From Isurus oxyrinchus (Eukaryota), in assembly GCA_026770705.1 (NCBI GenBank), contig JANJGN010000034.1, positions 3,658,001 to 3,722,000 of the forward strand: a stretch of DNA of 64,000 nt, in the 5' to 3' direction. The position numbers were made by a program, and so were the translations under genes. Below are positions 5,299-64,000 of this stretch, piece after piece. Position 1 is the first letter of the stretch; each line of letters opens with the position of its first letter. A model generated the notes under the pieces. That model had not been told where the DNA came from. It was given only the letters and a program-made list of their open reading frames with translations, and ran no database searches.

Positions 5299-5334
5299 CA
5301 AAACCTTGGCTAGTGGAAATGCAGTCAGCCAACT
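5299..5334 (-). CDS. 36-nt microexon, (E)LADCISTSQGF
   Basis: tttgtttacatacag|agttggctgactgcatttccactagccaaggttttg|gtgaga. Confidence 0.75.
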
Positions 5335-14300: not shown

Positions 14301-17300
14301 CACTGCGTTGAAGTTGGTCCTGCTTTCTTTCTTCCTGCATTATGTAGCCAAAACCACCAGTTTGCAGGAGCTAGACCTTCCAAGGTCAGCTAATCTGAGC
14401 ATTCTTTATTTATCTATGCCCTACGAACCTCTGATAATATTGCATTCCCCTCACAAATCTGGCGTCAATGACAATCATTGCAATGAAAGCAGCTCAGTTT
14501 TCTACAAGCTGACTTTACAACTTACATCCATGAAAAGATGAAACTTTGTGATAAATTTCATGTGCACCAAAACAAGGGCCTGCAAATGTTTTCGCAAGCA
14601 TTGGTGCCTAGAGTTTCACTCAATGCTTCGATGACAACAAAATCCAAAACAAAAAATGCTGGAACAACTCCGAAGTTCTGACAGCGTCTGTGCAGAGAAC
14701 AGAGTTATCGTTTCGACTCACTTTTTCTTTCAGATTTCCAGCATCAGCAGTATTTTGCCTTTACCAATATTTTGAACATTGTCTATGAGGTGTCACTGAA
14801 AGATTCGGAATAACTTCCATGATTTAGTGAGGTACCTCATTTTGACAAACCAACTATCCGATATGCTTCACTTAGAACTTGCTGAATATATACTGCCAAA
14901 TCGAAATATCTATGCAGTCTTTTGTCACAATTTCTTTGATCCAGCACACTCTTCAGCACCTTTCTATTTACTTTATATTGTCTGTACCTCTCAATAATGA
15001 CAAAACATGTCATCATATATGTCTGTTTGCTAAATTCCATCCAATACGTTTTTTGCCTGTCTCGTAGCGTATCTTTGCCCCGTTGTAATTGATTTGCATC
15101 ATCATGACTGGTTGCACACCGAGAAATGTGCCATCATGGGCAAATTTTGTCCTCGCCATTCCCGTGATATAATCATTCCAATATTTTATGCATTCAATTC
15201 TTCAAGCACTGAAATTTAGAATTCATAACTGCCAATCATAACATTCTCCAGTATAATAGACAAACATTTATTTCCAATGTGTCGTGCCTGTTCATATGCT
15301 TTTTATTTATCTTCTTAAATCGAAGAGACACTAACACTCGTATTTCATGAGTCCATGCTGTGTCATTTATGTGGCTCTTTTTCAAGGGGTGGAAAATTCA
15401 TTGGGTTACAATCCATTGAAACTCATTCACTAGCCTTCCCAATCATTTGGAAAGAGAAAAGAAAGTTGAAAAACCACAGTTTAATTTACCCATTCATTGC
15501 TTGTACCCGCCTCTCTCATGTATTTACTTTCCTTTAATATCTTGATTTTTTTTGTTGAAAAAGGGTCTATCGCTTTCCTAATGTCAACTGTATGTTTCAG
15601 TTGATGAAAATGCCACTGAGATACTAGTCGAGCAGCATCAATCCTTTTCCAAATTTTATTCTGGCTCTCTTGAGCCAAGTGCCTCTCTGAACGTGTTTGC
15701 TGGAATATGTTCCTGAATATAAACTACAGAGAATCCCAAAACCGATGTCAGTCTGATTGTCTGTGGTTGCTACGAATATCATTGCGCACTTTGCTGTATA
15801 ACAGTTGCAAGTTTCCACTGACCTGTTCTCCGTCATTCACTAATATCCAGCGAAAATGTAACCATTATTTCGAACAATCTCACTATTTCTGTTAGCAATT
15901 CATTTATGAAGCTGAAATGCAAGGTAGCTGGACTAAGAAACATTTCCTCTCTAAAGCATAGCATATTCTCTCCGCAGCACCATTTCTTCAAATATGGAGA
16001 CAATCGATCACATCTACAAGTTGCGCTTTTGCCAGCAGGGCGTTCCTTAATAAGGACAAATAAAAAGTGAACCATATTATCCTAGCCTGCACTGCAGCTG
16101 TCACCTTATCTTCACTCATAATCAACAGCCCACCTCTTGTTACCCCTTTAATATATACAGTCTTTTAGAGGATTATTGGGTTACCTTTTAAGTCATCTGC
16201 CAATTATTGACATTTCACTTTTTCATTTCTATTTCCAATTTAAAATGCGTTGTAACCTCATTTTATTTGGCATGCCTCTAGCATGAACACATCTGCTGGG
16301 GTTCATCATATACCCTATTTCATTTTGTTTCCTCACACTCTCTATCACCCTCATCACATAAGGGAGCCTGTCTTTGTGACCCTGCACCATTAAACATGTT
16401 GAATTGTACCCAGCCGTCAGTTCAATCTTATACTGAAAGACTACTAATGCTCCATTATAGTTTATTGTGTCAATCATTGGTTCCATTTTACCCTGACAAC
16501 ATTCTTTCTCAACTATTTTAACTTTGTCCTCTAACAAATTTGAATACCTACATTGGATGTTTCCCTGACCTTCCCCAATAAAAGTCTTTACCTTATGGTT
16601 CATGGAGCACCATCAAGCACAATATGGTCTCAATAAGTTGGAAAGATGTTTTTTCTTAATGTCTCCATTGTAAAGCTATTTCTTGATAAATATAAATTGT
16701 TTTTATGTCATAAGTCAACTTGTGCTTTCCGAGAGGAATGAGTTCCTTTCTGCATTGTGAACTCAGAGATTTATATGATTGTTATGAAACTGTTTTTGTT
16801 GCCCTTCTCCTGTCCTGTTATCACGTGTTTCTTGGTAATATGGGCACAAAACAAATGTAACAGAATGCAAGTATTACGTGAGAAGAGTTCTATACACCTT
16901 TAGCAAAGTGGTATTTTCTCATCGCATTCGCTATAAGTGGATAATGGCAACATTGCATCGTCTCGTGACAGCCTTTTAAAACTGATAATTCATTTCCCTT
17001 GTATGTTTCTACATTGTACTGTTTATTCATGTGGAATGCACATGAAAATGGTCCAATTGATGTGCCTCTCTTGTGTGGTTAACGTTTGCAGCAATGAATC
17101 TGGAAAAATATTTTGTTCGAGCTCCTTCTCTGGATGCAGAATTAATGCTGACACCATTCTCACTATTCCCTTTACAGATTCATCCACAGGCTTACACACT
17201 TACTGTATCCTGTTTTTATCTAATCCTCTTAAAGATGGAAAATCGTTTATGTTTTGAAGGAGCACAACACGCATCTTCTAACTGATTAAAGTAACGTGTT

Positions 17301-20300
17301 ATATTCATTCACGTACCTCCCTTTAGCCCACGTATTTTCTCATCTGTTTGAGAGTCGTAAATGAGTTATAAACTTTCAGCAAGAAACATTGAATTGCAAT
17401 AGTATATCAGTAGTAAATAGCTGTTACAACACACAATAATGCAATATATTGCTAATAGGCAATCAGCAAAAAATTAACAATGCATTAGCAGTATTGACCA
17501 ATGATGATTTAACCTTGATATCCGTTCCCGTGTAAATGAGTGCAACTGCTATTTGTAGGATTATAACATCCAATAGATAACAAACTGACAATTTATTGTT
17601 GTTTTCCATGAAAACTTATCTCAAGGATTGCCGAGAAAAAAAAACTAAGTAAAGAGTTCTGTACTTTATCACACATAAACAGAACTGGTTGAAGGTCTCC
17701 ATCTACTCATTAATTTCAACGTATAAATCATTGAATAGAGAACTGCGGGTGGAAGTCTATTCAGTGACTGGGACGCTCATTTCAGGACTGGTATTCTCTA
17801 AAACCATTTGAGATACCTGCAAGTTCCATGAGGATTTTGGTCTTGTCATTCTAGGATGAACTGGCCTATGATTTGAAAAGTTTTGTCGAATGTGTCGGTT
17901 TGATCATTTGCAATTTACATTGTATTTTATGAAGCAGTGCCTTCAACTGTGGCATGCTGCTATGCTGCAGGTATGGTGTGAATGTCTAAGGTCGTGGGAT
18001 GGATCTTTTTCAAGTGAATTGCTTTGTTTTGGACTTTGCCTTAATTTTGCGTTTTACTGGAACACTTTTGACCTAGGCTAGCTGTGTCTATTCTATATTG
18101 CTGCTGAATTGTTCCAAATGTATGCCGGACAGGATATGAGGATTCAGGCTGTGTGTGATTCGCCAGGGAATCCGAAGCCTCCTAGTAACTGTTGTTGGCA
18201 TAGCAATTATTTGGCTCGTTCAGTGAATTTCTGTATAATACAAACCTCCAAAATTTTGTTGCCAGGGGATTCATGGGTGCAAATGCCGTTGGCTGCCAAG
18301 GGAAGAGTGTTAGGTTGTTTCTTGGGGAAATAGCCATTGTCTGGCAATTTTCCTGCGTGAACGTTATTTACCCATTACCAGACATAGTCAAAACCTCTTT
18401 CCACATATGGGCACGGACTGTTCTAACATCTGATGAGTCAGAAATGGCCCTGACATTACGTAATGATCAGCTAAATTTTTCACTTTTAACCTTAATCCTC
18501 TACCGTGAAAGAGATGCAAAATATCTGTTCAAGTTATCCACCATTTCCTACTTTTCCATTATTAATTCCCCAGGCTAATTCTGTACCTGACCAAAACTCG
18601 CTTTACTTTCTTTTTTGAATTTTAACTAGCTGTGAAAACTCCTACCTGCTTCGTTTTATATTTGTAGCTACAGTTCTCTGATATTCCACTTTTTCTTCAG
18701 TTTTAATGTTTTATTCATGTTTGCTCTTCCTTATATGGTGTCCAATTTTCTAACCTGCCACTCATATTTCAGGAGTTATTACCGTTTCCTTCAAATATGA
18801 TACATTGTTTCACTGTTCTACGTAGCCAAGGGTGAGCTGCCCTTGCCTTGGAGTGTTTGCTTTTCCAGTCATTGGAATACATATTTCCTGAGTATTCTGA
18901 AATACCCCCTTAAATGTCTGCCACTGCATTTTCCTTGACATATCCCGTAATCTAATTTCCCATTTCACTTTACTGGGCTCTGCGTTCATTCCCCACAATT
19001 GACATTATTTAGCTTTAAACAATTACTCTCTGATCCACTCCTCTCTTCCAAAAGTGAAGGTGAAATTCAATCGCATCCTTATTTTTTAATCGTGGCAACT
19101 TCACTACGATGGCATCCCTTAATCCTGTCTCCGTGCATGTTATCAGATCTAGTATAGCCACCAAATCTGCTTGCTGATAAAGCTTTCTGCTCTAAGAAAC
19201 TGTCCCAAAAAAAAAACTCAATCATCTAGGCTACCTTTACCAATCGGATTTGTCAATCTATCTGCAGATTAAAATCATCGACGATTTTCACCCTACATTT
19301 CTCACAGATCATCATTATGTATTTTTATGCAACTGGTCCTATACTGTGGTTACTATAAGGCGCCCATATTTCAAGCCTACGAATTGCATTTTAACTTTAA
19401 TATTTTTCATGTCCAATTAAACTGATTCAACAATTGATCTCCAAAAGTATTGCCATGTGTATCTATAGCAACAATTTCATCCTTGGTTGACTGAACTCCA
19501 GCTTTTTTAGGTGTGCTATCCTTCCAAGTTGTCATTTATTCTTGATATTCAAGTCGCAGCCTTTGTCTCCCTGCAGCCATGTCTCTGTGATGGCTAACAG
19601 ATCATATACATTTACTTCTAGTTGCTTTGTTCAGTGCGTGTGCATTTGTTACATCTGCTACACTCATTGACATAGATGGCATTTAGTGTTGTTGTTTTGT
19701 TAGTCGACTCCTAAGTTTGTACACTCCTTCTCTTCCTTCTTTGTTAATAGTTTCTAGTATGTGCACGTCATTGGCCAGCTTCAATTATCTTAATTGGCCT
19801 TATTTGGAGGGCTCCTGCAGTCACATTTAAACTTTCAGTTGAGTGCAGCAGATTACTTTCTCTGAATGGTATTTAATGAATCAGTGCCTTTCATGTTGTC
19901 TTTAGACGTTTAATACCAGATTATTCATTGAATTCAAATTTCACCATCTGTTCTGCTGGGACTCTAACCTGGGTTGTTAGAGCATTACCCTAGGTCTCTA
20001 GAATACTGCTTAACTGGTGACAATACCAGGATGCCAAGTCCGGAACACCAATTGCATTTTCCTACTTAGCTCATTTGCCTATTATTAACTATTTAAGTTG
20101 CCACATCTTCCCAAACGTCTTCCCGTGTCCCCGAAATCAACCCTACCCCTTCCCACCCACAGCAGATAGTGAATGATGTCAAATTTTCCTCCTGTTCATA
20201 TGTTCTGCACTCTGATTTAAAGTTAAAGGTTAGTTACTTAGTTTCATCTTGGGATCCTTTCCTTTGTCCATGGTGGAAGCAAGTTTCTAATGGGCCAAAA

Positions 20301-23300
20301 CAAATTATGAACAATGCTGAGCGGGTTTCTCCTGTCTATTGTGTGGCTTACTAGCCCTATCAGCCACACCTTCCAGCTCCTTATAATCTATAGCCAACTG
20401 CTAGGTGTTTAATTGGTTGGAATTTGATTTTGAATAATTTTTTTGGACACAATATACTAGGAAATTGCTCAACGTGGCCAGTGTAAGAAGTTTCACTGAG
20501 AAGCGTACTGTCTCCTCTTTCTCGTAAAGCGAGCTCTGGTGCATGAATCTTCAGCACGTTTGTACTAGTTGTGATGGTTCATAAAATATGTTGTATCTAG
20601 TGCCATCACTGAAATCTGGAGTGAATCAAATTGACAGAATACACGCATCTCTTATGTTGGCGAGCTAAGAAGGATTTGGAGTTGTAGAATTTACTCGGCA
20701 AATCTGGTTGGTTACAAATGGTTAAATCTTGGCTTTTCTCGAATCGTGCTGATCCCTGGCATCATTAAAGATGGTGATAACTGTGGATTATCCTCACTCA
20801 GTTTGTTTTTAAAATTCAAAACCACAATTCACGACCTGCTGTGGAAGAGCTGTATGTGTTTGAACTGCTATGTCTGAGGGGTTATTTGCGACTATAACTA
20901 AGATGTAATTTCGGTATGTAATGCAGGGCTCCTGCCACATCTGAATTTGAATCTACGGCCAAATCGAAACTTCAATTTCTTCACGTCCGATTCAGTGCCA
21001 TAAAGTACCTTTCTCGATCGTTTCCAACAATGACTCTGCAACAGACAGCATATTCATTATGTTTATCTGTTGGAAATAAAACAATCAATGTGGCATCAAT
21101 CACATCTTATGTCCATTTTACATGTGGAATGCCACATGAAAGCATGGTACATAATGATTAACAACAGCGAAGAAAACACTCTGTTAGAAATAAAAAAAAA
21201 CATATTACATCGAACAGAGGAATCTCTTTAAAAAACTTAGAGCATTACTGCTTTCCTTCTTTCTCATAATTCTTGCAGGAATCAATTTTCGGGTATTCCA
21301 GATAATTGACAAGGACGTTCTATTTTGTCCATCCAACTGAATGCTAGCAGGGTCTCACTTTAACAACTTCCGTGAAAAGGATGGAACAGTACAAAAGGAG
21401 CTCCACACTTCTTGGACGCGACCATCGTTGTCGAAGTTTATCTTGACCCAATGGCCATAGCAATGCAATCACGCACTGCCGCATTATGAAGTTCGGTGAG
21501 GTATATAAAATTAAGCATTAATCGGCCTCTGAGAACGCTGGCTTTGTACAGTGGCTCTTATGCTGCACTGGCAATTTCTATGTTTCGCGTTGCAGACATT
21601 GAATTCAGTAGTGATAAGGCCACCCAGCCTCAAAAGGTCTGTTTCAAATAAAACCAAATTAAAATTATTAAGACAAAAACAATTGTAAGCACATACGTAT
21701 GTCTACAAAATTACCACTATAATAACTGCAATATCCCCTAATTAATCTGACACTCAGTTACACCCCCATCAGGCAACAGGAAAATTTACAGATTTCAAGA
21801 GGCAGCTGGTAAAGCGCACTCTGGACGGTTACCTTCAATTTGAATTTGTTTCAGCTCTGGGTTCTTGCAGAGAGACTTGAGTCTCAACACGCTGTAGGCT
21901 TCTCACACTTGCCAGATCTTAAAATGCTTCTGTCTTACAAACAATCCCTAATAAACTTTATACAAATCTTTCTGTTCGGATGTACATTTTTCATTGTGTT
22001 TCTAGGATTTACTTATTCTAACAATAATATTCCTTGCATCCACTAATTTGAATAATAAGGTAAAAAAAAAAACACTGTGCCTGGTGTCATCTAATTAGCT
22101 GCAATATTTCAGCAAACTCGTTTGAATGTTTTATTTAAAAAGTGCAAATATCCCACTTCAGACCTGTGTTTCCAAACTTTCCCAATTTTACCTAATTGCC
22201 AGTTCAAATAATGTATTTCAATACCAGCTGGCTTTAATGCAATTATCACACAGATAAACACGCAAACATGGACACAGACACCAGTAAACACCACTTTTTA
22301 ATCGGTATAGAACGCATGCAAATGATTTTTTCAGAACTCCGTAATTCAAACTGTTAGACACTTTAATCTGTTTACCATTAGCTTTTTCTTCCTGCTTTTT
22401 TTCTATTAACAAGCGAACACATTTCCAAAGAATTGCAAATTAATGCCAGTTACTGCAATTTTGGATAAATTATTGCGTAACACATGAATTAGCTAAACAG
22501 TTGTTAAATTTCTACATTTACATATACGTTATGACATCTACCTTTGAACAAGAAACTGGAGGCTAAATAACATGGCCATTCAATCGTTAGAAACAATTGC
22601 TAGTGCATGACTTCATAGTGTATTCTCCATTTACTGCAAGAATTATATCTTTACCGATTTTCCTTGCCTACAAAATTGTTAAGCTACATTAAGTGGGTTT
22701 ACAGGCACCCGTTGAATTTATTTTGGTGACTACAGTGGGAGGAAATCTATATATCTTTATCCGTGCAGTTTTCAAGCAGCCGTGCACCATGGTACTCACC
22801 TAACTCTTTAATCAATTCTTGGCAATTCGCTATTCCTGGAACACAGACAAATTTTAAGTGGCTTTTGTTTCCTTACTTCATTAACAGAATGTTTTAATAA
22901 AAGTCATAGATTTTTTTCAAAATATAAAACACTAACAGAACCATTTCAGTGTGTTGGTAGTTGAGTATCCAGAAGATAAATGATACAGACATAACTTTGA
23001 GGAACAAGCAGATCAGCGGACCAAATATCTGCGTTGAGTTGTAGGTTTAAAGATGCATCCAAAGGTCCATAAAATGGCGGAGTTCCTGAGGCAGCTAAGG
23101 CCATTGCTGACGCCAGAAATAGATAAAGACATAGGCAGAATATTGGCTTGACGGGTAGGTGGGCTTCAGAAGAGGTCTCACCTTGAGGAGTGCAGTTTTA
23201 ACATTGTGGTAGCGCTGCAAGCCCTGACCATATTGAAATTGTCCCAGGATTTGAAAAGAAGAAGAAAACATATATATAATGGAGACATGACCTGATTGGA

Positions 23301-26300
23301 GCCAATGAACATCGCAAAACACATTGACTGCAGGTATTCAAAAAGGTAGCTCAGCAGCAGCTTCTCAAAGGCAATTAGGAATTCGCAATATATGCAGTCC
23401 TGACCAGCCACTCTAAAATTTCGTGAATGAATCAACAAAAAGAAGCAGAAGGTCAAAAAGGATTTGAAGAGGGCAGCTGTTTTGATCAGTTGAACTCTAA
23501 GAATGGAACAGGATGAGAGTCTTGCCAATAGTGCATTGGGAGTGTTTAAGTGCAAAACAGTCAGGGGAAATTTTGCACTCCTAGTTTTGAATAGCATTTC
23601 ATGTTCGTTCTTTCTCAGGATTCCTGGAGGGCATGCTTTGCATATGCCAGATGAATAAACATGCTTGCTGTTGGTCCAGCTGAGCGTCAATAGAGACGCA
23701 AATGATCGTGTTATATTAGAGGGAACAATTCACACAGCAGCAGTTCCTCGATTATTGCAATGGAATACAGGCCTACTAATTTCCTTTAGAATTGACCGCT
23801 ATCGCCGTCCATGAATCTACTTTGATGCCGAGCAATCAGAATTCAATCGGGGCTGAATTTTACGCTCCACAATTGGGAGGGAATTCCTGCTTTGTGGAGT
23901 GTATTATGGGGCTTGATGACTTCGGGCTCCATTTACGATGTCATCATGCCGGTTTCCAATAATACACCAAGCGAATATTTCAAACATGCCCGCATTATTT
24001 GAAGATCAATTTAAAAGGCAATTGAAGTGATTAGCTAACCATTTCACTGCAACGACACGGTCAGAAGGCAATAATGCATCATATGGGCAAGGTTTCTGAC
24101 TGGTGGGAAATCCTTATTTTTAGCACATGCTTTCCTGGGCGGAGTCTAAACTGCGGTTGAAACCGGACTCTCACTTTTGCTTTTAGAAGTCTATTGATCA
24201 TAGAGACTGCTCACATGAGTGGACAGAATGACCCTTTGGATATTTTCGAGTGGAGAACTGTCTTCTTGTCCAACACCCAGCAGGAGTGCCGAAAAGTTTC
24301 TTAGACAGGTGGGCATTGTTGCCGCAGTTGGAAACAAATCCTGCAATGAGGCTGACAGAAGGATTAATAGGAGGAGGAGAATATTAATGAGAGGAAAAAG
24401 GAAACATAGGGAATCTCAGAATGTTGTGCTTCCCCAGGAAGGCAAAAGAGCAGCGTCAGGCCCAGAGCTTCAGACGGAACCTAGAAAGCATCAGCTGGGG
24501 TGCTTGCAAACTTATACCACCCTAAGGGTATACAGGCAATGTTATTGCAATCTGCAACAGACATTATCAGGGCTTTGACCGTTTTGTGGCAATGTGACCA
24601 AGACCTCCTCACCACGCCACAGCTGTTTACATCGTTGGTCACATCCTCCCATGTAACATGAGCTCCGTACTTTTCCCAGCGCTGACCAATAGCCGTTGGC
24701 CCATATACTGCTTTCTGACAGGCACTAATGGCATCTCGATCGAATGTAGAGGCAGATCGGACAGTTCAAGAACGCCCCCCCTCCCCCACCAGCCCCGCAC
24801 TGATGGTGCAGACATGCATGAATGCCAATAAACAATAACTACAATTCAACTATGCCAAAAGGTGGGAAATTACTAATATTTAAAATTCTGCCACCAGTGA
24901 AGACTGTCATGATTGACAAAGATGGATTAATTTTAAAATAAAAACAGAAAATTCCATGAAGTATTCAGCAGACTTAGAAGCATATGTAGCCAAAGGATAA
25001 GAATTAACGTTCAATGCACACATGACACTACGTCACAGCCAAGGGAAGCAGACATGTAATTATTTTTGCACGTTCAAAGAGAGGGGGTGGAGCAGGTGAA
25101 TCAAAATAGAGAGTCAGGAGTAGGTTGAATCTCTGGAGTAATTTGACGGAGATGCCGTGGACATAAGACAGAGAAAGTGAAAATGATACTGTTAAAGATT
25201 AGACAGTCGCTAAAATTTCAGGTGGAAGAATGTGTTAATAGTAGAAAACAGGTCAGCACTCTTTGAAAGCATACCGTACAGACAGGTTGCAAGCCGTCTT
25301 TGCGGGAGATGTGATGTAGTGTACATATCAACATGAAGTTGAAATCCATTGTCTGAACGTGTTGAACTCATTATTTCGTGCCGAATTTTGTGAAGTGCCT
25401 TGCCGGAGTGTGAGGTGCAGTTTCTGTACTATGCTTTGGCCAACTGGGTGGAACGGGGTCTCATCTTAAGATTAGGTGCATTGTAGCCTCCCTCACTTAA
25501 CAATGAGTTCAGCAACTTCATGGAATTGACTCTGCCCTCCATTTTGTTATTGTTCGCACACCCCATGCCCCACTGTGACAGTTCCTAACTTGTTCTTACG
25601 TTTTGCTTTGAGGAAGCCAAGCCCCTTTTTTTCTGCTATTATTAGGTTCTGTTGTTTAAACTTTACGTCACAATAAGTGCCTTAATTCATTTTACCACTA
25701 TCTTTTCCATCTCATTTTGTCGTGTACCCATGACATCATTGATAAATGTCTCCTGAGTGCTCAGCTACCCCTGAGCTGCTATTCTGCTTAATATAGATCA
25801 CCACCTCTCTTTATGAATCCTTTTACATTTCTACCTCTCTTCAGCAGTGATTAGAAACATACGGACTAGAAACAGTAAATCTGTTGCTCCATCCACAGAT
25901 GCCGCCAGGCCAGCTGTGTTATTCCAGAATGTGATGCCTTTATATCAGATTTAATTTAGCTAAAATCTAAATTGCCGTACCTCACAAGACATTCCTTGAC
26001 TCTACATATTAGATGCACACGATTGATCAGCTGATGGTCCTACTGGCAGTGGGAAGTGCAAGATTTGAGTGGGGTTGGGTGAGGTTGGCTTTGCTTTTTT
26101 ATAATGCTGTCCATTGCCTTCCACCAGGTGCCTACAACTTCTGAGACTGGAACTCCCGGCCTCCAGCATTCTTTGGGCATTTATGACAATTCCCGGCAAT
26201 GAGATTATTAGCAGGCGGGCAGCGAAAGCAGCTCGCAATATGAAATGTCGTCAACTACTGGATGCGGAACTCGCCACCAGTGAATATTGTTCAGCCCCAG

Positions 26301-29300
26301 GTCTCTATGTTGCATTGTGGCCTTTAATGCTCGGGGTGATGGCATAGGCTGAGCAATTTGGAATGAGCCCGTCACTGTACTGGCATGATGCTCACTCTTG
26401 ATATTGAGGTGTTGCTGTACATCAGTTTGAATCTGGATGTGAACCGTTTTGGCGCAAGTATTTCATGTGAGGTTGAAGTGAAGGGTTAACAAGGCAAATA
26501 TTTTCCCATGAAGTGCCAGAACAAGGTATTCTGGCATTGACCAGCTCAGTGTTTCATAATTCAAAACTTTGAATGTTTTAATCGGTTTACCTTTGTCTTT
26601 GACTTTCAGCTTTGCTTCTGTTAATCATCAAAAACATACCAAACCAATGCAAAATTAGGCTTTAAATGCCTTACACGGATATACGTAAGGTGCTAACGAT
26701 TCGTTTACCCACAAAATTACTAACATAAACGGCGCAGGTTTGCAAGCATATTGACCTGTGTCCATTGTTATGTACGTTAGGAGTAAATATATCATTATAT
26801 CATGCGTCTGTAACTGCCGAAATATTTGGCAGCCGCGTTTCTCGTTACTCACCCAATTCTTTCAATGTTTCTAGGCACTTAGCATAATCTGGATCGAAGA
26901 CAATTTAATATTTTTTCAATTGTAACCCACATTAGCTTTGTTAATTCACTAATATAATTGCTTGTAAATGTTACAAACATGGTTAATATGTACAAAAGTT
27001 CAAAACATTTTAACAGAATTTGAGGCGGTATATTCACAACATGAATGGTACAGGGCCAATGTAGAGAGGGTGGGTTATGGAGGCGTGGTGGGGGGTGGCG
27101 TGTGGGGGGGGGGGGTGTAGTTCAGTTGGCCGAAGATTCTAGGGTTTAAGTTGTAACCATTTGTGTACATAAAGGGGGCGATCCGGAGGCAGAAATTGCC
27201 TTTGCTAATGCCATAATCAGACAAAGACACAGGAGGCATATCTGGCGTCAAAATTAGGTAGACATCTGAGGAGACCTCACCATGCAGAGTACAGAGTACT
27301 CGTTCATTCCCGAATTTGCAAATTGTTTGCCAGAATTTTAAAACAAGCACAAATGAATTAGAATCAAGCTGTACATGATTGGAACAAATTAACATGACAA
27401 ACAAATGGACGGCCGCCGTTCTTGAAGGCGGCTCACCACTAACTTCTTAAGGGCATTTAGAGGTAGGCAATAACTGTTAACACAGCCAGGGATGGCCATG
27501 TCTGCTGCACGGATCAATGAATATAAAAGGCTGAAGGATAAAATGGACCTGAATATGGCAGCAAAGTTAGAATCAAACTGAAGCCTAAGGATGAAATATG
27601 TTGTGAGTCTTGCCAATAGTGTTTTGGGGGAGTTATATTGCAATGAATAGAGGATGTTCTACCCGTAAGTTTGAACAGGTTAATAGTCCTTCTTTCTCCG
27701 GATTCCTGCAGGTGTCTGGTTTGGGATATTCCAGAAAAGTGAACACGTTAACCTTTTTGTCCACCTGAGGGCCAACGGGTACTCACTTCGGTATCTTCTC
27801 ATATCGAAGTAACAATTGATACAGCAGCCGTCCCACAATCCTTGCACTGGACAACAGACCTCCAGAGCTGACATCTATCACATCCACTTTGAAGCAACGA
27901 GTCAGAGTTCAATTCTAGATCTGTTGCTCTTTCGTATTATGGCACTAATGTGTTTTTTTTTACGCTAAAGTTGAAAGCATAGGGGGAGCTGCTTGGACGT
28001 TTACGTCGTTGTCCAACCATAATTGTGGCATTAGACATTAGGTTTAATGCTATAAACCAGTTTGAAGCATTTTGTGGTACTTATTGGTGCATATTATTTA
28101 ACTAATTGATGAACATACAATCATTCATGTCTTTGTTACTGACCCGAATGAAGGTGGTTTTCAGAATCTCTGACCTTGTCCAGCAAAATGTTTCGTTATT
28201 CAAAGCATTGCACGTTTTACTCGGTGTACCTTTGTCTTTGGCTTGCAACCTGTTTTCTGTTCGGTAGAAAAAGCATTTCGAATCGGTTGCCAAAATTAAT
28301 GCAAGTTACTGCGATGAAAGTGAATTACTTGTGTAGTGAAATAATTGGCCAAGCAGTTGCTAAATTGTTTCATTAACAAATATGTTATGACATGTGGATA
28401 CGAACATCAAATTGGTGCGAAGACTACAATTGCTGCTCCATCTTTAGAAGCTATTACTACCAAATGGCTTTACAGCGTATTTTCCAATTAATCAAATAAA
28501 TAATTCGTTAATGTTTATCCTTGCCGATACTGTTGCTGAGGGTTTGCAGGATCATTGAACTCTATCAATTGATAAGTACAGTTGCAGTAAATATATCAAA
28601 AGAGTGTGTGTTTATAACAGTGGGAGTTTTAAGCAGCCACCTTCCATGTAACTCACCTAATTCCTGCAGCGACCCTTGGCATTTGGCTATTTCTGTGTTG
28701 GAGACCATTTATTTGTATTTAAATTTGCAATGACATTTAGTCCGGTAATTCGTTAATAGAATCATTCTTGCATTATTTTCAATTCAAAAAAAGCTGTAAC
28801 AAAACATTTTAACAGGGTGCAGAGCCATGTTTCGAGGACTGTAATGACACAGCGCCAGAATTGGAGAACAAGCAATCCAGTTGGCCAAAGACCTATGGTG
28901 AGATGTAAAGGTTTAATTTATCCCCAAAGGCTAATGGATAAGTGGAGGCCCTTAGGCAGCAAATGCCATTGCTGGCGGCATAAACCGCTAAATGGACAGA
29001 CGGCATGTCTGGCGAAAATTGTAGGTAACCTGCAGAATAGATCTCACCTTAACGAGAACGGAGAGTTAGGGCTGCCTGCTTGCAGCAAATGAACATAGAC
29101 GAACACAAAGACTGCCGCAGTTCATGAAGGGGGTTCATCATCATCTTCTCCAGTGCAATTCGGAATGGACAATAGGCTGAGCCAGCAATGACCATGTCTC
29201 GTGAACTGCTAAATAAGAAGAACTAATCAAGGCTGAAAGACAAAGTGGATGGGGGACTTTGCTTCATATTTTTTAATCAATTCAAGTCTAAACATGGAAG

Positions 29301-32300
29301 GCGATGGGAGCATTATAATTGCTAGAGTTAGAGCGCAATACAGAAGTGGACATTTTTCAATTCTTACATCTGAACAGCACTATTTTCTTCTTCTCACAGC
29401 ACTTGGAGGATTTCGCTTGGGAGTTTTCCATATCATTTAATACAGTGCTTTTTTCTCTACCTGTGAGCTCCAACATCTTCTACGAAAAAGTGAACAATTG
29501 ATACAACAATCCTACTATTCTTGCACTAGAGCACAAGCCTAGAAATATCATGGAATTAGTATAATCGCTGTGCGACTGCTAATTGAGAACTCATGTCTCA
29601 ACATGTTATTTTTAGTACTTGGTTCTTGATCCTTGGAACTTGCATCATTTTCCATGCTAAATATGTTGGCATATGTTTGAGCCGTGTTGCATTCGTCCAT
29701 CATTACACCATGAAAATGATGACATTGGACAATAGCTACAGTGCCATGTACTGATCTCAAAGTTTTTCAAATTCTGAAAGGCACATCAGATTTTTTTTTT
29801 ATTTTTGGGGGATTACAGAGACAATAATTCATCCAGTTGTCTACATGTTCTTGAATTTGGTTCAGAGAATCACTGAGAAAACACATATAAGTAATTCATA
29901 ATTGCATATTAATTGTTCTCTAATTCCAAACATTAGATTTATGCTGAATTACCTTTGTCTTTGCCTTCAAGCTTTTTTACTGTTAGGCAGAAAACACATT
30001 TGCAAAGATTATGAAATTAAGGCAAGCTACAGCGATGATGGTTTATTTCTTGAATTACTTAGCAATTTATTTGCTAAATTGTTTCATGAACAAACATTTT
30101 TTGCATTGTCTACTTCACAGCAAATTCGCAGGAAAAGTGAACTGGCATTCATTCTTAAGGAACTAACCAGTTTCCTGATTTCATTGGCATTTTATTGTAA
30201 ACGGTATAAACATGCTCCTGATGATACCTCTTCTCTGCGAAACTGCAAATGTACGATGTATTTATGCACGGTCACATTGTTCTGTTTCAATTTATATTGC
30301 ACTTAATTGTGGGGGAGTTAACAACGATACAGGTATTTAGCCTTTGAAGTTGTTAAACAAAACAAACCGCATTTCAGATGTGTTGAATTATCGTTTGACA
30401 TGCAATGTTCTTGGTTACTGTAATCTAGAAAAGGTAATTGGATGTAATCTTGCGTTGAGGAAAATGAAACATTATCGGGGTTACTGAGATATGGTTATAT
30501 GAAAAGCGGGACGGGATGAAAAACTTTAAGATAGAAAAGATACGAAATGATTTATTTGGTAGTACAGAAGTACATTGGTAGAGTCATTGGTGGAGGAGAA
30601 TGTAACAATTAACAGTGAACAGCCAAGTTTTTATTTCCGATTTCGAACCTGGTAGATTGACTCCTGGTAGATTGGTCAAGGAATTGCCATGAGGAAGGCA
30701 AAAGGGAATGCCCTGGTGCGAATATTTTGTTTGTTTGGAGAAGGCAAGTTCATTCAGCCTGATTTTGACTTATACACAAAGGATTCTCTCCATGTGCAAA
30801 AAGAAGGTGAAGCCAACATTTTATAACTTTACCAATCAATGCCCACTAGCCAATCATGCAACACTCTCTCATCATGCGGTATGCAATTCTGTGCTCTTTA
30901 ATGTTTGTTTTATCTTGAGTAGCCGTCCTGATGAGTGTCCGAATGTAAGCATCGATAACATATGCATTGTCTCTGCGATAATTAGATTTGGTACTACAGA
31001 TGAAAAAAAAGGAAGTTGAGTATTTGTACTTTTAATATCAACCTGTCGGTTGATAAAATGGACATATCAAGTAAGGGATTTAGGAATCTATATATACTTT
31101 TTCATATTAATGAGAATTGTACTGATTATTCTTTAAGAAGAGTGTGTGTTAGAATTTCCGGAACATGTTGGTACCAGCGACATAGATGTCATCCAATGAA
31201 ACGGGAGATGTTTGCTAAGAATTGCCAAGAATTTTAAAAGTTCAACTTCAGAACTGTGGAAGTTTCAACAGGATCACTTTTCTTTTCAGCTCCCATGCTT
31301 ATAGATCCAACCTGATCATTCTGTCTTCTTAAGGCAACCTCTTCATGACATGAATCAAACTTACTGACTGATAATTAATGCCTCAAATATATCGTTCATC
31401 CATATGTAAAGAAAAACCGAAATGCTGAAAATGATATTGGACTTAAGTGTTTAATGCACCTGCATTATTTGTTTCTGTGATTCGTGTACGAGGAATCCCG
31501 TAGGATTCTGCACTCCCTATCCTTTTAATTAAATTTACATTTCCCAATTTTTTCAATCAGAAAATGCAAATGTAAATTCGGATTTTCGCTGATTGTAACC
31601 AACATGTTTTTTTTTTGCTCAGTCAGTTAGCCTATCTAAATTTTCTTTACACACCGTCTGCATCAAAAGGAAATAGTGTGCACTTGTGTTTTGTATCAAT
31701 TTCCCCGATACGGCCGAGTTTCCTGATGTGCCAATATGTTTTGTACACCTTGTGCTTTCTTAATACGTTCTGCTTGCCAATATCCAAATTTCTACGTCAC
31801 TCTATTGCTTTGTATTTTCACGTTGAATTTCGAAATGCCCTCTCATATGAACACCCGCCTCGGCCTCCATCACATATTTTGAAGCCATCTTAACAGCTCT
31901 AGTTAACATTTACTTGATTCACCGAAACAAGGTACCTGTGCCACTCAAGTGAGACCATCAAAATGGTAAAGCTGGCCATGTATGTCCAGACTCTCCCGTA
32001 AACTAGATTAATTTTCCCTGTAACAACCTGCGAACCACACATTCAACTTACTTACTTTATTTACCATCATGTTTTCCTGCTCATGTTTCAAGTCGTTATC
32101 TTAAACCTTCCCAATTCTGTTCCTTTAAAATAAAGAATAGTACCTAGCTACTCAGACTGCTTTAGACAAACCTATTTTTTTCTAGATCCTCTCTATGGAG
32201 ATTGTTCTCACCAGAAGTACGACAACTGGCTGTTTCCAATCGTATTCTAACGTTCTGTCAAAATAGGGGGTGATTTCATTAAGATTGCACCATGGGCAGT

Positions 32301-35300
32301 ACAAATTTCGGAACAGATGCTCTCGGAGGGAAAGAGCATTATTGAAATACATAACAATATGAAAACAAAGGCGAAATAGTGCCAATACTGGAAATCTGAG
32401 TTTGACTTAAAAAAAAACACAGTAAATGCTGGAGTAGCTCTGCAGGTCTGGCAGCATCTGTTGAGGATTTTATTTCTTGGACGTGGTCTGCCCGGGCTTG
32501 TGAGGCTTTTCGATTGGATGCTGCAGAGGAAAGATTTCCGAAGGAGATGAGGTCAGTGACAGGCCTGGAAACAATAGCTTGGCGTTTTGGTGTTCCGTGG
32601 TGTGGTCCTGGTCCAAGAAGAGCTGGGAAGACGTATCTGAGAGCTGGCTCTTAGTTTCTACAAGGTAGAGACCTTTACGTCAGACAACAACAGCGCCACC
32701 CTTGTCGGAACGTTTGAGAACAATGTCAGGGAATTGGCCTGATTTTAGTGAGTCTGGAAAATGAGAGGTTGGTGTGGATGAGAAGAGCAATGATTGAGAC
32801 GGGCGATGTATCATCGACAGTTGGAATCAAGCACACTTGAAACATTAACTCTGTTTCTTTCTACAAAGATGCTGCCAGATATGCTGTATGTATTCAACAG
32901 TTTCTGTTCTTTATTGCATGACCGTATTGTTTCCTACGACCAAACAACAACGTTTTACACCCCGAGCTAAATGATTTGTGGTAACACGTTTCTGAGTCCA
33001 TTATGCTCATCCTGTCTGCATGCGGCCGTTGTATCCATCAAAGCTTCCCTTAAGCATGTGCCTTGTCATTAAGACAAGAACAACATCATCTGCCGAACTA
33101 CACTGAATATATCAGATCCAACGCCTTAAAGTAAGATATATGACAATATTTGGCAAATATAGTTAACTTTGTAGATTCTGAAGTACAATTGAGACATGAA
33201 ATTACGCAGTCAAGTTTTACATCAGTACTTGCCTAAGAAAAGAAAATGCATCAATGGCAACCGACCGTCGGAATAGTCAGATCTCACTTATTAAACAGAT
33301 TGGCATATTTGGAGTGCATGGTGCAAAGCTATCAGTGCTTCATCAGCAAAGAGGGGGAATCATTTCAGCAAGAACTTTGAGTTATTTCTCTCACATCTGC
33401 TTTCTCAGGAAATGCGCTTTGTGTCAAACTTGAAATTATAAGTATTATAATTCATTGTTTTTTTTACATTAAGCACTTTATGCGGAAAGAAAGTGAAACA
33501 CCAAGAGTTCAACGTTTCTTGAGCCGTCCCGATAAAATCAGGATGTACCGGAGAACATTAAAATATGTAAGCACTTTTATGTGCTGTTTCCTCCCAAGAT
33601 TCATTCTCGTCATTATTATTCACAGTTCTACAGAATTACCTCGACCGCTGCGTTGGAGCTATGACCAGTAATCTTTTAAATCCCATAATTTTTTGCTGAA
33701 ATGCTAATACGGAATGGCTGTGTAATGCAACGATATAACTGGTGCTCCGAAGGCGTCTGAAACAGATGATTAATGACAATTAATAATGCAGACATATTGT
33801 AATGAACATTGCTTGTTGGAATATATAGTCCATTTGCTGGGGGCGTTATGTAAATGCGTGCAGACATAAGCAGGAATTTGGTGTTAATTTTACACGTTAC
33901 ATGATTAATATACAGTCAATGAATTGTAGAATTATTCAAAACCCACAGGGAGGAGATTCACATGCTTGCCGAATCTCCTGAAACGCAGCTCATCCCACTG
34001 ACCCACCATTCTCCCGTGTCCACGTATGTTTATCTTCACGTGTATATTCAGTTCGTTTAGAAAGCCAAGATTGTATCTGTTTCCATGATGTCCTTTGACA
34101 GTGCTTTCTGCTTCTACGGTCAAACGCCTTTGTTCTGAACCACTTTCTTCTCCACCTTTCCGCTAATTGGATCAGCTTATCCAATCCGAATAGACTCGCT
34201 CTGATTTCGACTATGAAAGTCTCTGCACAACTTTTTTTTTTCTGCATGAAGAATCCGAGTCATTTTAGTATCCTCTTCACAATTCAGAATACTTTTGAGT
34301 TTTTACTTGTCTGCAAATTTTTATCTTCCGACAACATGCAAACCTACTTCATTAATAGGCAAATGTGAGCAAAACCGTATTTTTAGCACGAGGTCCCTCG
34401 CTATCCTAACTGCATTAATTCATTTATTTCTAAAAAAAAATCACCTGTTCACCTATCCATTGTGTTTCCTGCCATTCAGCCAACATAGTTCTTAATTGTG
34501 GATGACGTTAGCAAGGCATTGGATTCTATTTATGAGCACTTTGGTGTAAGTCAAATGAAATTAAATTTCACTTTGCATTTTGTTTGTCATGACTCATCTG
34601 TAGCGCTACCATAAATAAAGATATCTCTATGCGGTGGATGATCAGGTGGGCTTAGCAAATCTTCACTAAGAAGGCAGAATATTAATTCTCTGCGTAAAGA
34701 ATCTCAGCAAATAAATTAATGGAGACACATTGCCTATGGAATTCAGAGCAGCCCTTGGGTGAAGGTAATTATAACGTTGGAAACAAAGTCGATATGGTCC
34801 AACTTGAAGCCGATTTGAACCGGAGCATTGCGGAGGACAATCAGACAAGCCAGCGTGGGTTGAATTTCATGCAAGCGTAGGATGACTGCTGGGTTTTTGC
34901 ATCTACTTACATTTTTTTCCAGAGATCAGGGAGTACCTATATACCATGGCCTTCAGAACAGAAGGTGCTGCTTTTCTGTACAACTTTTAAACCGAGGGAG
35001 AAACTTCATAAATTGTGCTCAATTGTATTGATATAGATACCATTTGGCGGACGTAATGTCCTGGATAGTTTTCATCGCTTTCTGGAGTCAGAGATCGATT
35101 TTGCTGATTATTGCTGTCCCTTGATAATTGGTGAGTTTTCTGTTGTTCTAATCTTCACAAATCAGATGGAGGCAGGGTTTATTCGATGATGCAGAATAAA
35201 ACTTTACCCGTACAATTCGACACATCACTCAAAGGATAGCAAAGCAAAACACTATGGCTGAGGAAACAGTGAAATAACAAAAATAAAACACAGAAAGTGA

Positions 35301-38300
35301 ATTATTAAAATAGAATATAGTGGCTGTGGCAGCATTGGTGCAGTAGAAACCGCGTTAATATTTCGAGTTGAATACGACTCTTATTCCGAACATATTTCCT
35401 CTATTCTTTAATTGGATGTGGGCATTGCTCATAAGGCCAGCATTTGTTGTGCATCCCAAAATAGCCCTTAAAATGAACTGTTACTAGGCCATTTCGAGGT
35501 CAGTTAAAATTCAACCGTACTGCTGCCTTTCTGGTGGTACATGTGCGCTAGAACAAGTAGGGAAGGCAGAGTTCCGTCCCTAAAGGGAATTAGTGGAGCT
35601 TTTTTTTACAACTATTGAAGATATCGTTCATGTTCGCCATGACTAGTTCTATGTTTCAGGTCCATTAACTCAATTTTAATTTATCAGCTGCTGTTGTTTC
35701 ATTTGAACCCTTGTAACCAATGCATTATTCTGGACCTTTGGACTATTTTTCCAGTTTCATTACCACTATGCCACGGTCTCCCCCAGGTCATACTATTTTT
35801 TTTTTTATGAGCGGACCATTTCTCTGCCCATTCTATTTCTTTGTTCGTAGGACTCAGTGTCCGCTTTGACAAGTCAGTAGAAATAATAGCTAGATTGTTC
35901 TGTTGAAGAATCATTCGGACTCGAGATGTTAACTGTGTTCCTCTCCGTAGATGCTGGCAGACCTCCTGAGTTTTTCCAAGTATTTTAAATTTTCGTGCTA
36001 GATTGCTTCTTTGATAATCTGCAATGAGGGAACAACGTTGACTTCTCCACTAATAACTTCCATGACCAATCTTCTGAGCAATCACTATGATCATGTTTAT
36101 GCCCAGCATAGAGCACAGACCCGTTCTCAATCAAACCTCTCATCAGAAATTGCAATGCACCCGAACACTGGATTGTTGGTCTATAATTGTGCATCTGCAT
36201 TGGAGTGCCCATTTTACTCCTGAGAAACATGGTGGAAGAGGTGATACAAGAAATGTGTGTTAATGAGTTTCATTACCTTAGTGAGATGGTCAGCAGTCAG
36301 GCAGTCAAGCATCAGATGAATGATGTGTGTGCTATCTAGTTGTCAGCTCAATCGTCCTAAGAACTGCTTTGCTGTTATATCCGTTCGCTGACAGTAACAT
36401 GAATTCGGCTATTTTTATGCCCAATTATATGGACGAGTGTACCCTCAGTAAGGCAACACAAGCAGAATTGAGCCGTTGCTTCAGTGCCCATTTGACAGTA
36501 CATTTTAAAACAGTGCACACATTATAAATTATTGTCAGTGAATTTTAACGAAGCATACATTTTTTTGAATTACCTTTTTTGGCGAATCTTTCATTAAAAA
36601 CAACAAAGATAGCGACATCCTTTCTGAATGGAACTTCTTTAACCTCAGGAAAAGACGCCAGGTACTTCAGAGGCACCGTACAATATTGGAGGCCAGTGGT
36701 GAAGTTGTAATGTCTTTGGCCTTGTAATATTGATTTTCAAGCTGACCTTTGGAAGCATGGGACCAAATCCAACCATGGCAACTGGCGGAACTTATTTTAA
36801 ATTAATAAATCTGGATGTATAAACCTAGCATCAGAGAACACCATGAAACTACTTTCGGTCGTCCTAAAAACGCATCTGGTTCACCAATTTCCTTTGAGGA
36901 TAAAAGTGTGCCATCCTCAAATAGTTTCGCCTCGGAGTGACTCTTCGCCCATTTCCATGTGGTTGACTCTTAATTCTCTTATCTTATTTGGCCTTGCGAG
37001 TCACTCGGTTAAAGGAAAATTGGGCTTAGGCGACAAATAATGGCCTGGCAAACGACGCCGACATCCCATGAAATAATATATAATATATTTACATAGAATC
37101 ATAGAAATCTTATAAACACGCACAAATACCATTTGGTTGACGAATATGCCCTGCGTCTCTGAACGAGTAATTCGTCAAGTAGTGCTTCTCCCCACAGCCC
37201 GGTACATTATTATCCAATTTTCCACAATTTTGTCATGCATATCTTGATGCAACTTATCTGCAGGCCACTCTCAAAAACTGAATTCCAGATTCTAAATATG
37301 CTCTGGGTATGAAAGTTTTTTTCCTATTGCGTCCAATGCTTAGATAACAGTTTGCCTTGGACCTGTGCCATCTGATGCTCGATCTTTCCACAAGTTGCAC
37401 GCGTTTCACTTTATGTTTTTGAATACCTTTGTCAAATCTCCTATGAATCTGCTCTATCCCAAGCGGCAGTCACAAATCTGCCAATATATCAAAGCAACTG
37501 GCGTTTGTCATAACTGCAGCAGTTCTTGCAAATCTTTTATGCACTATCGCTAATGCCTTCTCATCTTTCCTAAACTATGGCAAACATGAACAAAATGCTC
37601 CAGTAAATGACAATGCATTTTCCGTTTTAGCGTTAACATGGTTTCTTTGCTTTTGCACACTTACAACCAGATTTATAGCTTTTAGTCTTATTAAAACGAT
37701 TATTCCTTATTAACTATACTGTCAGGTTGCCCTGCAAAAGCCTACCATTTATTCACGCGTATAACCAGACACCTGTGACTCTGCACTGTTTTCATAATTG
37801 TACCTCACAGTTCTCTACATTTCTATGCAAAACATGTCTGCCCGCCTGTTTGCTAACTTTAAAAATTATTATTATGTTATTTTTTCCTTATTGTTTGCCT
37901 GTTACAGTCGTTAGGTACCATAATAAACATGCTACAAAATAAATCAATACAAATGCTGGCCTGGCCAGCTACACCGATGTCCCCTGAAATAATAAAGAAA
38001 TTTTGTGTTATTGTACAAATATGAAACGTTATACTGCATAAAAATATGCCAGCTATTTGTATGTTTCAGATAAGGCAGATTTTTATAACTGTGCCTTCGG
38101 GCAGAAAGCTGTCCACCCTCCTTCAGTATTCTGCTGCTCCTATTTCAGAAAGACACCCTGTATTTCATACCGACTCTTTGGCCCAAAATAAGTCACTTCA
38201 CACTCCCGTCTATTAAAATCTAACTCGGATTTATGCAGCCAAATGACAACGTTCTTTTGAAACACGATATCATGCTTCTTCCCAGTTCACAATAATTCCA

Positions 38301-63965: not shown

Positions 63966-64000
63966 ATGTTAACACAACAGAGAATACTTTGTTATAGGAC

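Follow-up and report, generated by a model that had tools for sequence, protein, structure and literature searches.

An array of short phase-1 exons in Isurus oxyrinchus predicts a long coiled coil, likely joined to a B30.2/SPRY domain

Exons of the window and the surrounding array

The window, by which we mean the whole stretch of 64,000 nucleotides of Isurus oxyrinchus DNA analyzed here, contains seven minus-strand exons at 22376-29979 with lengths of 27-36-27-36-27-36-27 nt, each bounded by AG and GT and in phase 1. The ends given for them in the original prediction were all confirmed, and these ends also bear out its claim that a 36+27 pair amounts to 63 nt, that is 21 amino acids or three heptads. 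Exon profiles were seeded from the seven exons and scored against all 36-nt and 27-nt candidates in the window. The 36-nt profile picked 8 of 394 candidates (scores 37.6-52.4; next best 6.9), and the 27-nt profile picked 9 of 402 (scores 35.9-48.2; next best 11.1). The features are listed below in the order of the minus strand.

1..64000, minus strand: window, wholly inside the array, which runs from ~C34:3,973,900 down to 3,528,800
61528..61554, minus strand: 27-nt phase-1 exon (short type), weak member, score 13.6
59171..59206, minus strand: 36-nt exon (long type), Cys at first d
58789..58815, minus strand: 27-nt exon, same cassette type as the units at 22376-29979
57388..57414, minus strand: 27-nt exon at a short-short junction, where register is lost when no exon is skipped
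55882..55908, minus strand: 27-nt exon, second short-short junction
54737..54772, minus strand: 36-nt exon, Gly replacing Cys at first d
50842..50877, minus strand: 36-nt exon, Cys at first d, coming after another long exon
50412..50438, minus strand: 27-nt exon, profile match and cassette alignment
43264..43290, minus strand: remnant of a 27-nt exon, acceptor kept, GT donor absent, excluded from the count
30382..30417, minus strand: site of a lost 36-nt exon in the cassette of exon 29953-29979, intron homology kept, exon unrecognisable in an alignment of six cassettes
29953..29979, minus strand: 27-nt exon, first of the seven, positions f-g-a-b-c-d-e-f, Leu at a, Lys at d
28657..28692, minus strand: 36-nt exon, a-d-a-d = Ile, Cys, Leu, Leu
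28230..28256, minus strand: 27-nt exon, 400 nt downstream of its long partner
26853..26888, minus strand: 36-nt exon, a-d-a-d = Tyr, Cys, Leu, Leu
26591..26617, minus strand: 27-nt exon, 235 nt downstream of its long partner
22800..22835, minus strand: 36-nt exon, a-d-a-d = Ile, Cys, Ile, Leu
22376..22402, minus strand: 27-nt exon, last of the seven, Gln at a, Lys at d
21009..21035, minus strand: 27-nt exon, weaker member, score 15.0, short-short junction
17317..17343, minus strand: 27-nt exon, weak member, score 13.6, short-short junction
13982..14017, minus strand: 36-nt exon, Cys at first d
5841..5867, minus strand: 27-nt exon, profile match
5299..5334, minus strand: 36-nt exon, Cys at first d
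C34:3,474,119-3,474,637, minus strand: terminal B30.2/SPRY exon, outside the window, 54 kb beyond the array end, entered in phase 1

Nowhere else in the window is the alternation as clean as in the run at 22376-29979, both flanks of which break it. Exon 26853..26888 shares 8 of 10 residues with a stretch of the catshark model P0254, in the identical frame. Tandem Repeats Finder did not detect the array. When contigs of four sequencing runs were compared with 13000-31000, cover among the pieces listed fell on intronic repeat stretches, with no exon-exon joint and zero depth in the bins of the three long exons at 22376-29979, a result that has no bearing on expression.

The array comprises 89 in-frame 36- and 27-nt exons over ~445 kb of the minus strand, scoring above the ceiling set by opposite-strand decoys, and the seven exons probably form just a short section from the middle of a shark-type gene of roughly half a million bases. 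A stop in the phase-1 frame occurs in only 1 of the 90 canonical candidates, compared with 69/90 and 30/90 in the other two frames; the other 89 keep both splice sites despite high divergence. Alongside the exon with the stop, 8 non-canonical remnants were found. The translation contains no Pro in 926 amino acids, and a rod of up to ~930 residues (~140 nm) is predicted from it if all exons are used. The core a and d columns are constrained (pN/pS 0.36-0.58), whereas the short exons outside their Leu are near-neutral (non-core pN/pS 0.89); in 68 short-exon pairs with alignable flanks, exon identity was 0.647 versus 0.644 for the flanks, with a pN/pS of 1.01. Since the repeats share descent, counts across them are not independent.

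Coiled-coil register and cassette duplication

Our register table of the seven exons reproduced the heptad assignment proposed earlier, with I/I/Y, L/L/I and L/L/L/Q at a and C/C/C, L/L/L and K/K/K/K at d. Hydrophobic periodicity peaked at 3.48 residues over their 71 amino acids, and the period was 3.50 in a strictly alternating 272-aa run. Across the whole array, 94% of the a positions are hydrophobic (n=131), as against 5-10% at b, c, e, f and g. The d positions are only 50% hydrophobic, with polar residues making up 50% compared with 6% at a, so that a dimer and a trimer are both possible. According to an extract of PMC13580157, a polar bias at d has been described for the stalks of trimeric adhesins and not for bZIP dimers, while Lys, the commonest polar d residue here (28/131), is accommodated at d in dimers by snorkelling of its long side chain. 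Pairing between g and e' was attractive in 40 cases, repulsive in 2 and neither in 78; the difference of 38 between attractive and repulsive pairs compares with a shuffle mean of -1.6 and a maximum of 26 in 5000 shuffles. With a hydrophobic stripe at a and d, a periodicity of 3.5 and complementary g-e' charges, the prediction of a long, parallel, in-register coiled coil is well supported at the level of sequence.

Long and short exons alternate at 73 of the 88 array junctions (shuffle mean 44, maximum 61 in 20,000) and at 13/19 junctions in the window, where the other 6/19 are long-long or short-short. It had been proposed that the heptad register needs the pair and that this explains the alternation. 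The pair does keep the register, and alternation lies far above chance. However, in 97 cassette pairs homology is seen at both exon ends, like exons always matching each other, and the copied unit, judged from these alignments, is a two-exon cassette with its intron, duplication of which yields alternation unaided. Moreover, with all exons included, 15/88 junctions fall out of register, and isoform models of relatives in the databases are set apart by one 9- or 6-aa segment, some having dropped a single segment of 9 aa. We infer that unequal crossing-over enlarged the array by copying, as one piece, a long exon with its intron and a short exon. Alternation would then have come with the cassette and been preserved by selection at core positions, and the first d may have been Cys in one cassette lineage and Leu in another.

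The B30.2/SPRY exon and its relatives

The terminal exon matches Pfam SPRY PF00622 at 3.4e-18 (66.3 bits, cut-off 26.3), and its matching phase suggests that the array likely splices to it. A 21-aa repeat is also found in the CD23-like C-type lectin neck; the identification of the downstream exon as SPRY led us to discard such a neck as a candidate reading. In a midpoint-rooted tree of limited sampling, the B30.2 domain fell into a separate clade of 15 rows (support 100/100), apart from 24 TRIM/BTN-type rows, and among the rows sampled this clade was found only in cartilaginous fish. Identity to TRIM domains is 30-45%. Five exons of the clade type lie on C34 and two others 2-4 Mb from an MHC class I cluster on C21. 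An MHC class I search gave no match on C34, and an MHC class II search gave none anywhere, its controls being equally silent.

With a clade-type B30.2 following an array of 27/36-nt phase-1 exons, and RING and Ig absent, the gene has the features of an unnamed cartilaginous-fish clade of coiled-coil and B30.2 proteins. Its relatives XP_038668997, XP_055510696, XP_069775384, XP_038672306, XP_042191566 and P0266 share the B30.2 clade, coil units of 9 and 12 residues and the core Cys. Their automatic models join a coiled coil to this SPRY type without RING or Ig, but at 218-945 aa they are far shorter than the predicted rod and are misnamed after TRIMs; databases label relatives 'TRIM39-like', 'TRIM58', 'TRIM69-like' or 'zinc-binding protein A33-like'. 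XP_038668997, which matches at 72% in the domain and is probably the ortholog, has a model that contains almost none of the rod. Catshark P0254 has a 12-residue unit with Cys at d, as in the array, and neither a hydrophobic N-terminus nor a membrane segment. Exons of 21 nt are present in the neighbouring paralog. No description of this shark family was found in the literature searched, which left out most subscription papers.

The chicken BG genes and the soluble zipper protein, as described in extracts of PMC4046983 and PMC5938342, likewise build a long coiled coil from many tandem microexons in which the first codon is split; their true heptads run across exon junctions, the number of exons varies and the coil contains conserved Cys. 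In contrast to the 36+27-nt pairs and ~89 exons over ~445 kb found here, BG exons measure 21 nt (rarely 18 or 24 nt) and number 13-36 per gene in these extracts, which describe signal, Ig-V and membrane exons and no B30.2, whereas here the end is B30.2 and the search turned up neither an Ig nor a membrane exon. The BG tail Cys, for which palmitoylation has been proposed (PMC5938342), are described there as outward-facing, while those of the array are at d. Butyrophilins (BTN/BTNL) resemble the gene in placing a terminal B30.2 (PRY-SPRY) after heptad repeats (PMC4046983, in part), a join that exon phase suggests here, but they have Ig domains, a membrane segment and few heptads, and the B30.2 domain here forms its own clade and does not group with BTN. 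TRIM proteins likewise place a coiled coil before B30.2; their coils are short and antiparallel in the extract of PMC6599887, whereas the present coil is long with charges that fit a parallel register. TRIMs also have RING and B-box domains, none of which was found here in 664 kb or in six relatives. Enterophilins are mammalian proteins with a long leucine zipper and B30.2 and without Ig or RING. Their likeness to the present gene would be one of architecture, a soluble heptad rod plus B30.2. An interaction with sorting nexin 1 is described for enterophilin (extract of PMC13749957).

Cellular location, core cysteines and possible functions

Motif, hydrophobic-exon, profile and phmmer scans and a self-comparison of the head-to-head paralogs did not find the start exon, nor did the first 50 residues of skate P0245 match the genome. 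The interval upstream of the array is bounded by a head-to-head, opposite-strand paralog, and there was no strict signal-exon candidate between this neighbour and the first array exon. Two signal-like frames were rejected: one on the plus strand at C34:3,960,787, which is a retroelement frame read in antisense, and one on the minus strand at C34:3,989,151, a single-copy frame, for want of a phase-1 donor. P0245, which falls in the subclade of the neighbouring paralogs, opens with a hydrophobic, signal-like stretch (KD9 3.31), but a hydrophobic N-terminus is absent from the models of 4/5 usable relatives' loci, and the ten relatives' models contain no hydrophobic stretch of membrane length (KD19 1.48 or less). 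Glycosylation sequons number 2 versus 4.0 expected, too few to weigh much. By analogy with the relatives' models, on which the location rests, the protein is probably cytosolic, a setting in which permanent disulfide stapling would be unlikely.

All 23 Cys of the array are at core positions, 22 at d and 1 at a. The claim that Cys occupies every third d holds for the three units at 22376-29979 and for 16/18 long exons of the surrounding 153-kb block; array-wide, however, Cys is at the first d in only 19/42 long exons, with a Leu block elsewhere and 11 consecutive long exons without Cys at d. Across these 19 exons the codon is TGC in 16 and TGT in 3. The next d is L, F or I in 16/19 exons after a first-d Cys, versus T or A in 16/23 after a first-d non-Cys. 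Most likely, Cys would act as a small buried core residue paired with a large residue at the next d, as Leu is with a small one; it would be reduced in the cytosol, yet placed to cross-link on oxidation. Within its block, the Cys column shows the highest conservation (16/18 versus 12/18 for Leu at a), which exceeds the need of a mere filler residue and counts against a plain core-packing role.

On balance, we favour the reading that the seven exons belong to the 89-exon array, likely spliced to SPRY/B30.2, and encode a parallel, in-register rod, probably cytosolic, with SPRY heads at one end. By analogy with the heptad tails of chicken BG and butyrophilins, the rod would likely be a spacer or scaffold presenting these heads to a ligand. 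It is possible, if doubtful, that the array is instead a pool of exons that are used alternatively or in part are dead, some never being spliced in, and that it yields much shorter rods of varying length. The register-breaking junctions, the remnants and the exon with a stop, the near-neutral short exons, the long exon lost from the cassette of 29953-29979, and the short models and segment-wise isoforms of relatives are all consistent with such a pool, whereas the 89/90 stop-free candidates with both splice sites and the constrained core columns argue for use of the exons. This possibility fits our preferred reading except in rod length. A butyrophilin/BG-type receptor anchored in the membrane, with Ig and transmembrane exons further upstream and the array as its cytoplasmic tail, is very improbable and has been largely refuted. 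Although phase-1 heptad microexons followed by B30.2 resemble the butyrophilin/BG layout (known from source extracts), and the best solved-structure matches of the domain are BTN3A1 and TRIM58 B30.2, no Ig, RING or B-box match occurred among 22,843 reading frames in 664 kb. In the same 664 kb, profiles of the BTN/ERMAP N-terminus (18 sequences) and the TRIM N-terminus (19 sequences) reached best E values of 0.3 and 0.39, with controls at 7.5e-137 and 1.6e-104; RING, B-box and Ig are absent from the six relatives scanned, none of the ten relatives' models contains a membrane-length stretch, and the opposite-strand paralog closes off the upstream interval.

The periodic interchain disulfides of the original prediction are geometrically plausible, since parallel in-register pairing sets Cys against Cys, and in the CREB3 zipper, which is parallel, Cys at d does make an interchain disulfide (PMC6423718, in part). 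A secreted or luminal rod, permanently stapled every 21 residues (~3 nm), could also draw on the confinement of Cys to the core, its retention in one block, the use of both Cys codons and the signal-like start of P0245. We nevertheless consider it unlikely, given that no signal-peptide or membrane exon was found, that the best loose candidate lacks a phase-1 donor and P0245's opening has no counterpart in the genome, that most usable relatives start without a hydrophobic stretch, that a long block of the same rod has Leu, and, with little weight, the sequon count. Cys layers in trimers can bind metal. We judge it rather improbable that the Cys ladder of a cytosolic rod serves as a regulated switch, be it through acylation, through metal bound by Cys3 layers in a trimer or through a dimer that is oxidised reversibly. 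The conservation of the Cys column above adjacent core columns and the polar bias at d, as in trimeric adhesin stalks, point towards such a switch, as do the redox role proposed for the CREB3 d-Cys (PMC6423718) and the palmitoylation proposed for BG tails, both from extracts. Against it, common ancestry in a single cassette with Cys accounts for a regional ladder that has no function, Lys at d is tolerated in dimers, and buried Cys would be poor acylation sites.

The disulfide staple is thus the less likely reading at present and a minority one, and the 21-aa pair and the Cys at d, though both hold, belong to a wider array and B30.2 system. This system represents a large cartilaginous-fish gene family that is in databases only as short, TRIM-named models. 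Speculatively, and with little confidence, it might be a B30.2 class without the TRIM RING and the butyrophilin Ig and membrane part, whose splicing-tuned rod of up to 140 nm carries ~16 paired core Cys mid-rod, one per 3 nm, which would be zipped by oxidation or bind metal: a redox-lockable ruler for an innate recognition domain. Beside TRIMs and butyrophilins, the family would constitute a third way of mounting a B30.2 head, with a building block of two exons and three heptads compared with one exon and one heptad in chicken BG. Its dozens of dated copies in one gene would allow a direct test of how heptad register constrains exon duplication and skipping.

Extent of the mini-exon array and its terminal exon

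The interval 22376-29979 of the window, which belongs to contig C34 of a 4.98-Gb genome (G000:C34:3,658,001-3,722,000), is filled exactly by seven minus-strand exons of 27, 36, 27, 36, 27, 36 and 27 nt. Each is bounded by AG and GT and all are in phase 1, so that junction codons are shared and a 36+27 pair encodes 21 residues, as the original prediction held. Its heptad register was likewise borne out, with I/Y, L/I and L at a, C, L and K at d, and a hydrophobic periodicity peaking at 3.48. With profiles seeded on the seven exons, eight of 394 candidates of 36 nt and nine of 402 of 27 nt stood apart in the window by a wide score gap.

A profile scan of 664 kb of contiguous genome (threshold 10; opposite-strand decoy maximum 9.4) gave 90 canonical candidates above the decoy ceiling, with one overlapping alternative call and 8 non-canonical matches excluded. 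A stop was present in the phase-1 frame of one of the 90, compared to 69 and 30 in the other two frames, and removal of this candidate left 89 exons (42 long, 47 short), extending from about 252 kb past the window's end to 129 kb ahead of its start. About a dozen further, weaker candidates emerged from a looser scan and are outside this count; some measure 18, 21 or 30 nt. Window positions 30440-50400 form a stretch of 20.4 kb without an intact array exon, containing one donor-less remnant (43264-43290). Two copies of a dispersed repeat (312-1797 and 39471-41057), 72-92% alike in pieces, lie about 39.2 kb apart in the gene's introns, and long reverse-transcriptase-like frames occur in others.

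A stop-terminated exon of 173 codons with phase-1 entry (C34:3,474,119-3,474,637, minus strand) is located 54,173 nt past the last mini-exon and matches Pfam SPRY at 3.4e-18; no second SPRY exon was seen elsewhere in the 664 kb. We infer that the array exons join this exon, as supported by the models of relatives, where such units lead into this type of SPRY domain.

Relatives of the SPRY domain

Relatives of the gene were found in sharks, rays and a chimaera. Its SPRY domain is 72% identical to that of a catshark model named 'TRIM39-like', 44% to four more C34 exons and 32-33% to two exons of contig C21. In a midpoint-rooted tree of 39 domains, sampled from the matches in hand, this domain, its genomic relatives and eight database proteins formed one side of a 100/100 branch, while 13 TRIM, nine BTN/ERMAP and two unlabelled rows formed the other. 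No RING, B-box or Ig was found in six relatives scanned, all with SPRY, and profiles of BTN and TRIM N-termini had no match among 22,843 reading frames around the gene, with held-out controls scoring strongly. Like butyrophilins, the predicted gene ends in B30.2, but it failed the Ig test; it also failed the RING test for TRIM. No description of this coiled-coil and B30.2 family was found in the literature searched.

A head-to-head paralog with 21-, 27- and 36-nt exons bounds the interval upstream of the gene. The positions of this paralog and of five other clade-type SPRY exons are as follows.

C34 about 4,013,900-4,817,018, plus strand: head-to-head paralog, about 800 kb, clade-type SPRY exon at its end
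C34 2.71 Mb: clade-type SPRY exon
C34 6.40 Mb: clade-type SPRY exon
C34 7.50 Mb: clade-type SPRY exon, near-identical to that at 6.40 Mb
C21 89.72 Mb: clade-type SPRY exon
C21 91.35 Mb: clade-type SPRY exon

In the parts of the paralog covered, on either side of its middle 500 kb, there are 27- and 36-nt exons at both ends, and single-heptad exons of 21 nt follow one another near 4.07-4.12 Mb. The 200 kb ahead of its SPRY exon held 49 plus- and 2 minus-strand candidates, mostly of 27 and 36 nt, a count that includes overlapping alternatives. An identical 27-nt exon occurs twice, 7.4 kb apart (C34:4,626,732-4,626,758 and 4,634,175-4,634,201), the result of a recent duplication. The C21 pair sits among many TRIM/BTN-type B30.2 exons. 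Of 33 MHC class I matches, 31 fell on C21, where 2-4 Mb separate the two family members from the closest matches, and none on C34. Certain W, R, P and G residues are invariant across the clade's SPRY domains in the variable-loop region, have no match in TRIM58 or BTN3A1, and may form a common ligand site.

Cysteines and compartment

All 23 cysteines of the predicted rod are at core positions, 22 of them at d. By long-exon order, Cys is present in none of the first 9, 16 of the next 18, none of the next 11 and 3 of the last 4. Cys at every third d, as originally predicted, holds for the seven exons but is a regional feature (19 of 42 long exons overall). Within the Cys block, Cys is the best-conserved column. 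The next d is occupied by a large residue in 16 of 19 Cys-type long exons and by a small one (T/A) in 16 of 23 others, as if each long exon kept one small core residue, a weak reading because the pattern amounts to one or two evolutionary events.

The chains of a parallel zipper can be linked by a disulfide through Cys at d (PMC6423718), so the geometry of the proposed periodic interchain disulfides is sound and the compartment decides. The start exon of the gene was not found. The most upstream long exon of the set (C34:3,973,872-3,973,907, minus strand) is a possible start exon: it contains an in-frame ATG, has A at -3 and continues with polar residues, much as relatives begin with short polar stretches. 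However, 1 kb further upstream there is a weaker 27-nt candidate. N-termini were surveyed in ten models from six loci; the probable ortholog, the 72% identical catshark model, whose N-terminus looks unreliable, was set aside. Four of the five usable loci have polar N-termini and lack a membrane-length hydrophobic stretch. Among them is catshark model P0254, which bears the same unit with Cys at d; it agrees with exon 26853-26888 at 8 of 10 residues, a match that scores low when taken alone. Skate model P0245 starts with a hydrophobic stretch that could represent either a signal peptide or read-through into an intron.

The B30.2 domains of TRIM and butyrophilins are cytosolic, and secreted B30.2 proteins exist. 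A secreted rod with permanent disulfide stapling would agree with the core position of every Cys, the zipper precedent and the skate start, if this is a signal peptide, but the polar starts, including that of P0254, argue against secretion, and the Cys are regional; we consider such a rod unlikely. A regulated thiol or metal role of the Cys appears quite improbable.

Coiled coil and exon alternation

Over the 926 residues of the predicted rod, hydrophobic residues make up 94% of a, 50% of d and 5-10% of the remaining positions, proline is absent and charge is balanced (206 K+R vs 213 D+E). In a parallel in-register arrangement, 40 of 120 g-e' pairs are attractive and 2 repulsive, exceeding all 5000 shuffles; given the common ancestry of the units, the number of independent pair types behind this result is about three rather than 120. 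The a/d hydrophobicity and the attractive pairing support, at the sequence level, the long parallel coiled coil that had been proposed. pN/pS was 0.36-0.58 in core and 0.76-0.89 in non-core columns. Excess conservation was observed in 46 long-exon pairs (identity 0.749 vs 0.645, pN/pS 0.68), and none in 68 short-exon pairs with alignable flanks (pN/pS 1.01). The polar excess at d is closer to that of trimeric adhesin stalks than to bZIP dimers, but its main residue is Lys, which is tolerated by dimers (PMC13580157).

Long and short exons alternate at 73 of 88 junctions (44 expected), which the original prediction attributed to heptad register. The copied unit, however, is the cassette (long exon, intron, short exon): the long-to-short introns of the seven exons align with those of other cassettes, and in each of the 97 pairs of two-exon units with homology at both ends the exons correspond like with like. 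Unequal crossing-over between homologous introns would gain or lose whole pairs without any selection, and cassette copying alone gives pairs. Selection on register probably helps to maintain alternation, since a 26-exon run alternates strictly with a clean 3.50 period. The 15 alternation-breaking junctions (5 long-long and 10 short-short, six of them among the 19 in the window) may in part be missed or skipped exons. By cassette alignment, the first of the seven exons (27 nt) has lost its long partner. In automatic models, the difference between isoforms comes down to a single 9-aa segment in two relatives, in one case within the coil, and to 6 aa in one. The pair keeps the heptad register, but the broken junctions, the lost partner, the single-segment isoforms and the paralog's single-heptad exons indicate that it is not a strict requirement.

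The heptad tail of chicken BG proteins is a cytoplasmic coil encoded by numerous 21-nt exons, and a soluble tail displaces tropomyosin (PMC4046983, PMC5938342). The shark gene resembles this tail in its heptad coil of many microexons, but has no Ig match. The microexon array is a real feature, from which splicing and the rod are predicted. Tandem NAGNAG acceptors are present at window 57388-57414, at C34:3,724,277-3,724,306 and at several exons of the neighbouring paralog; they would permit short-exon forms of 24 or 30 nt, and hence one-residue shifts of register.
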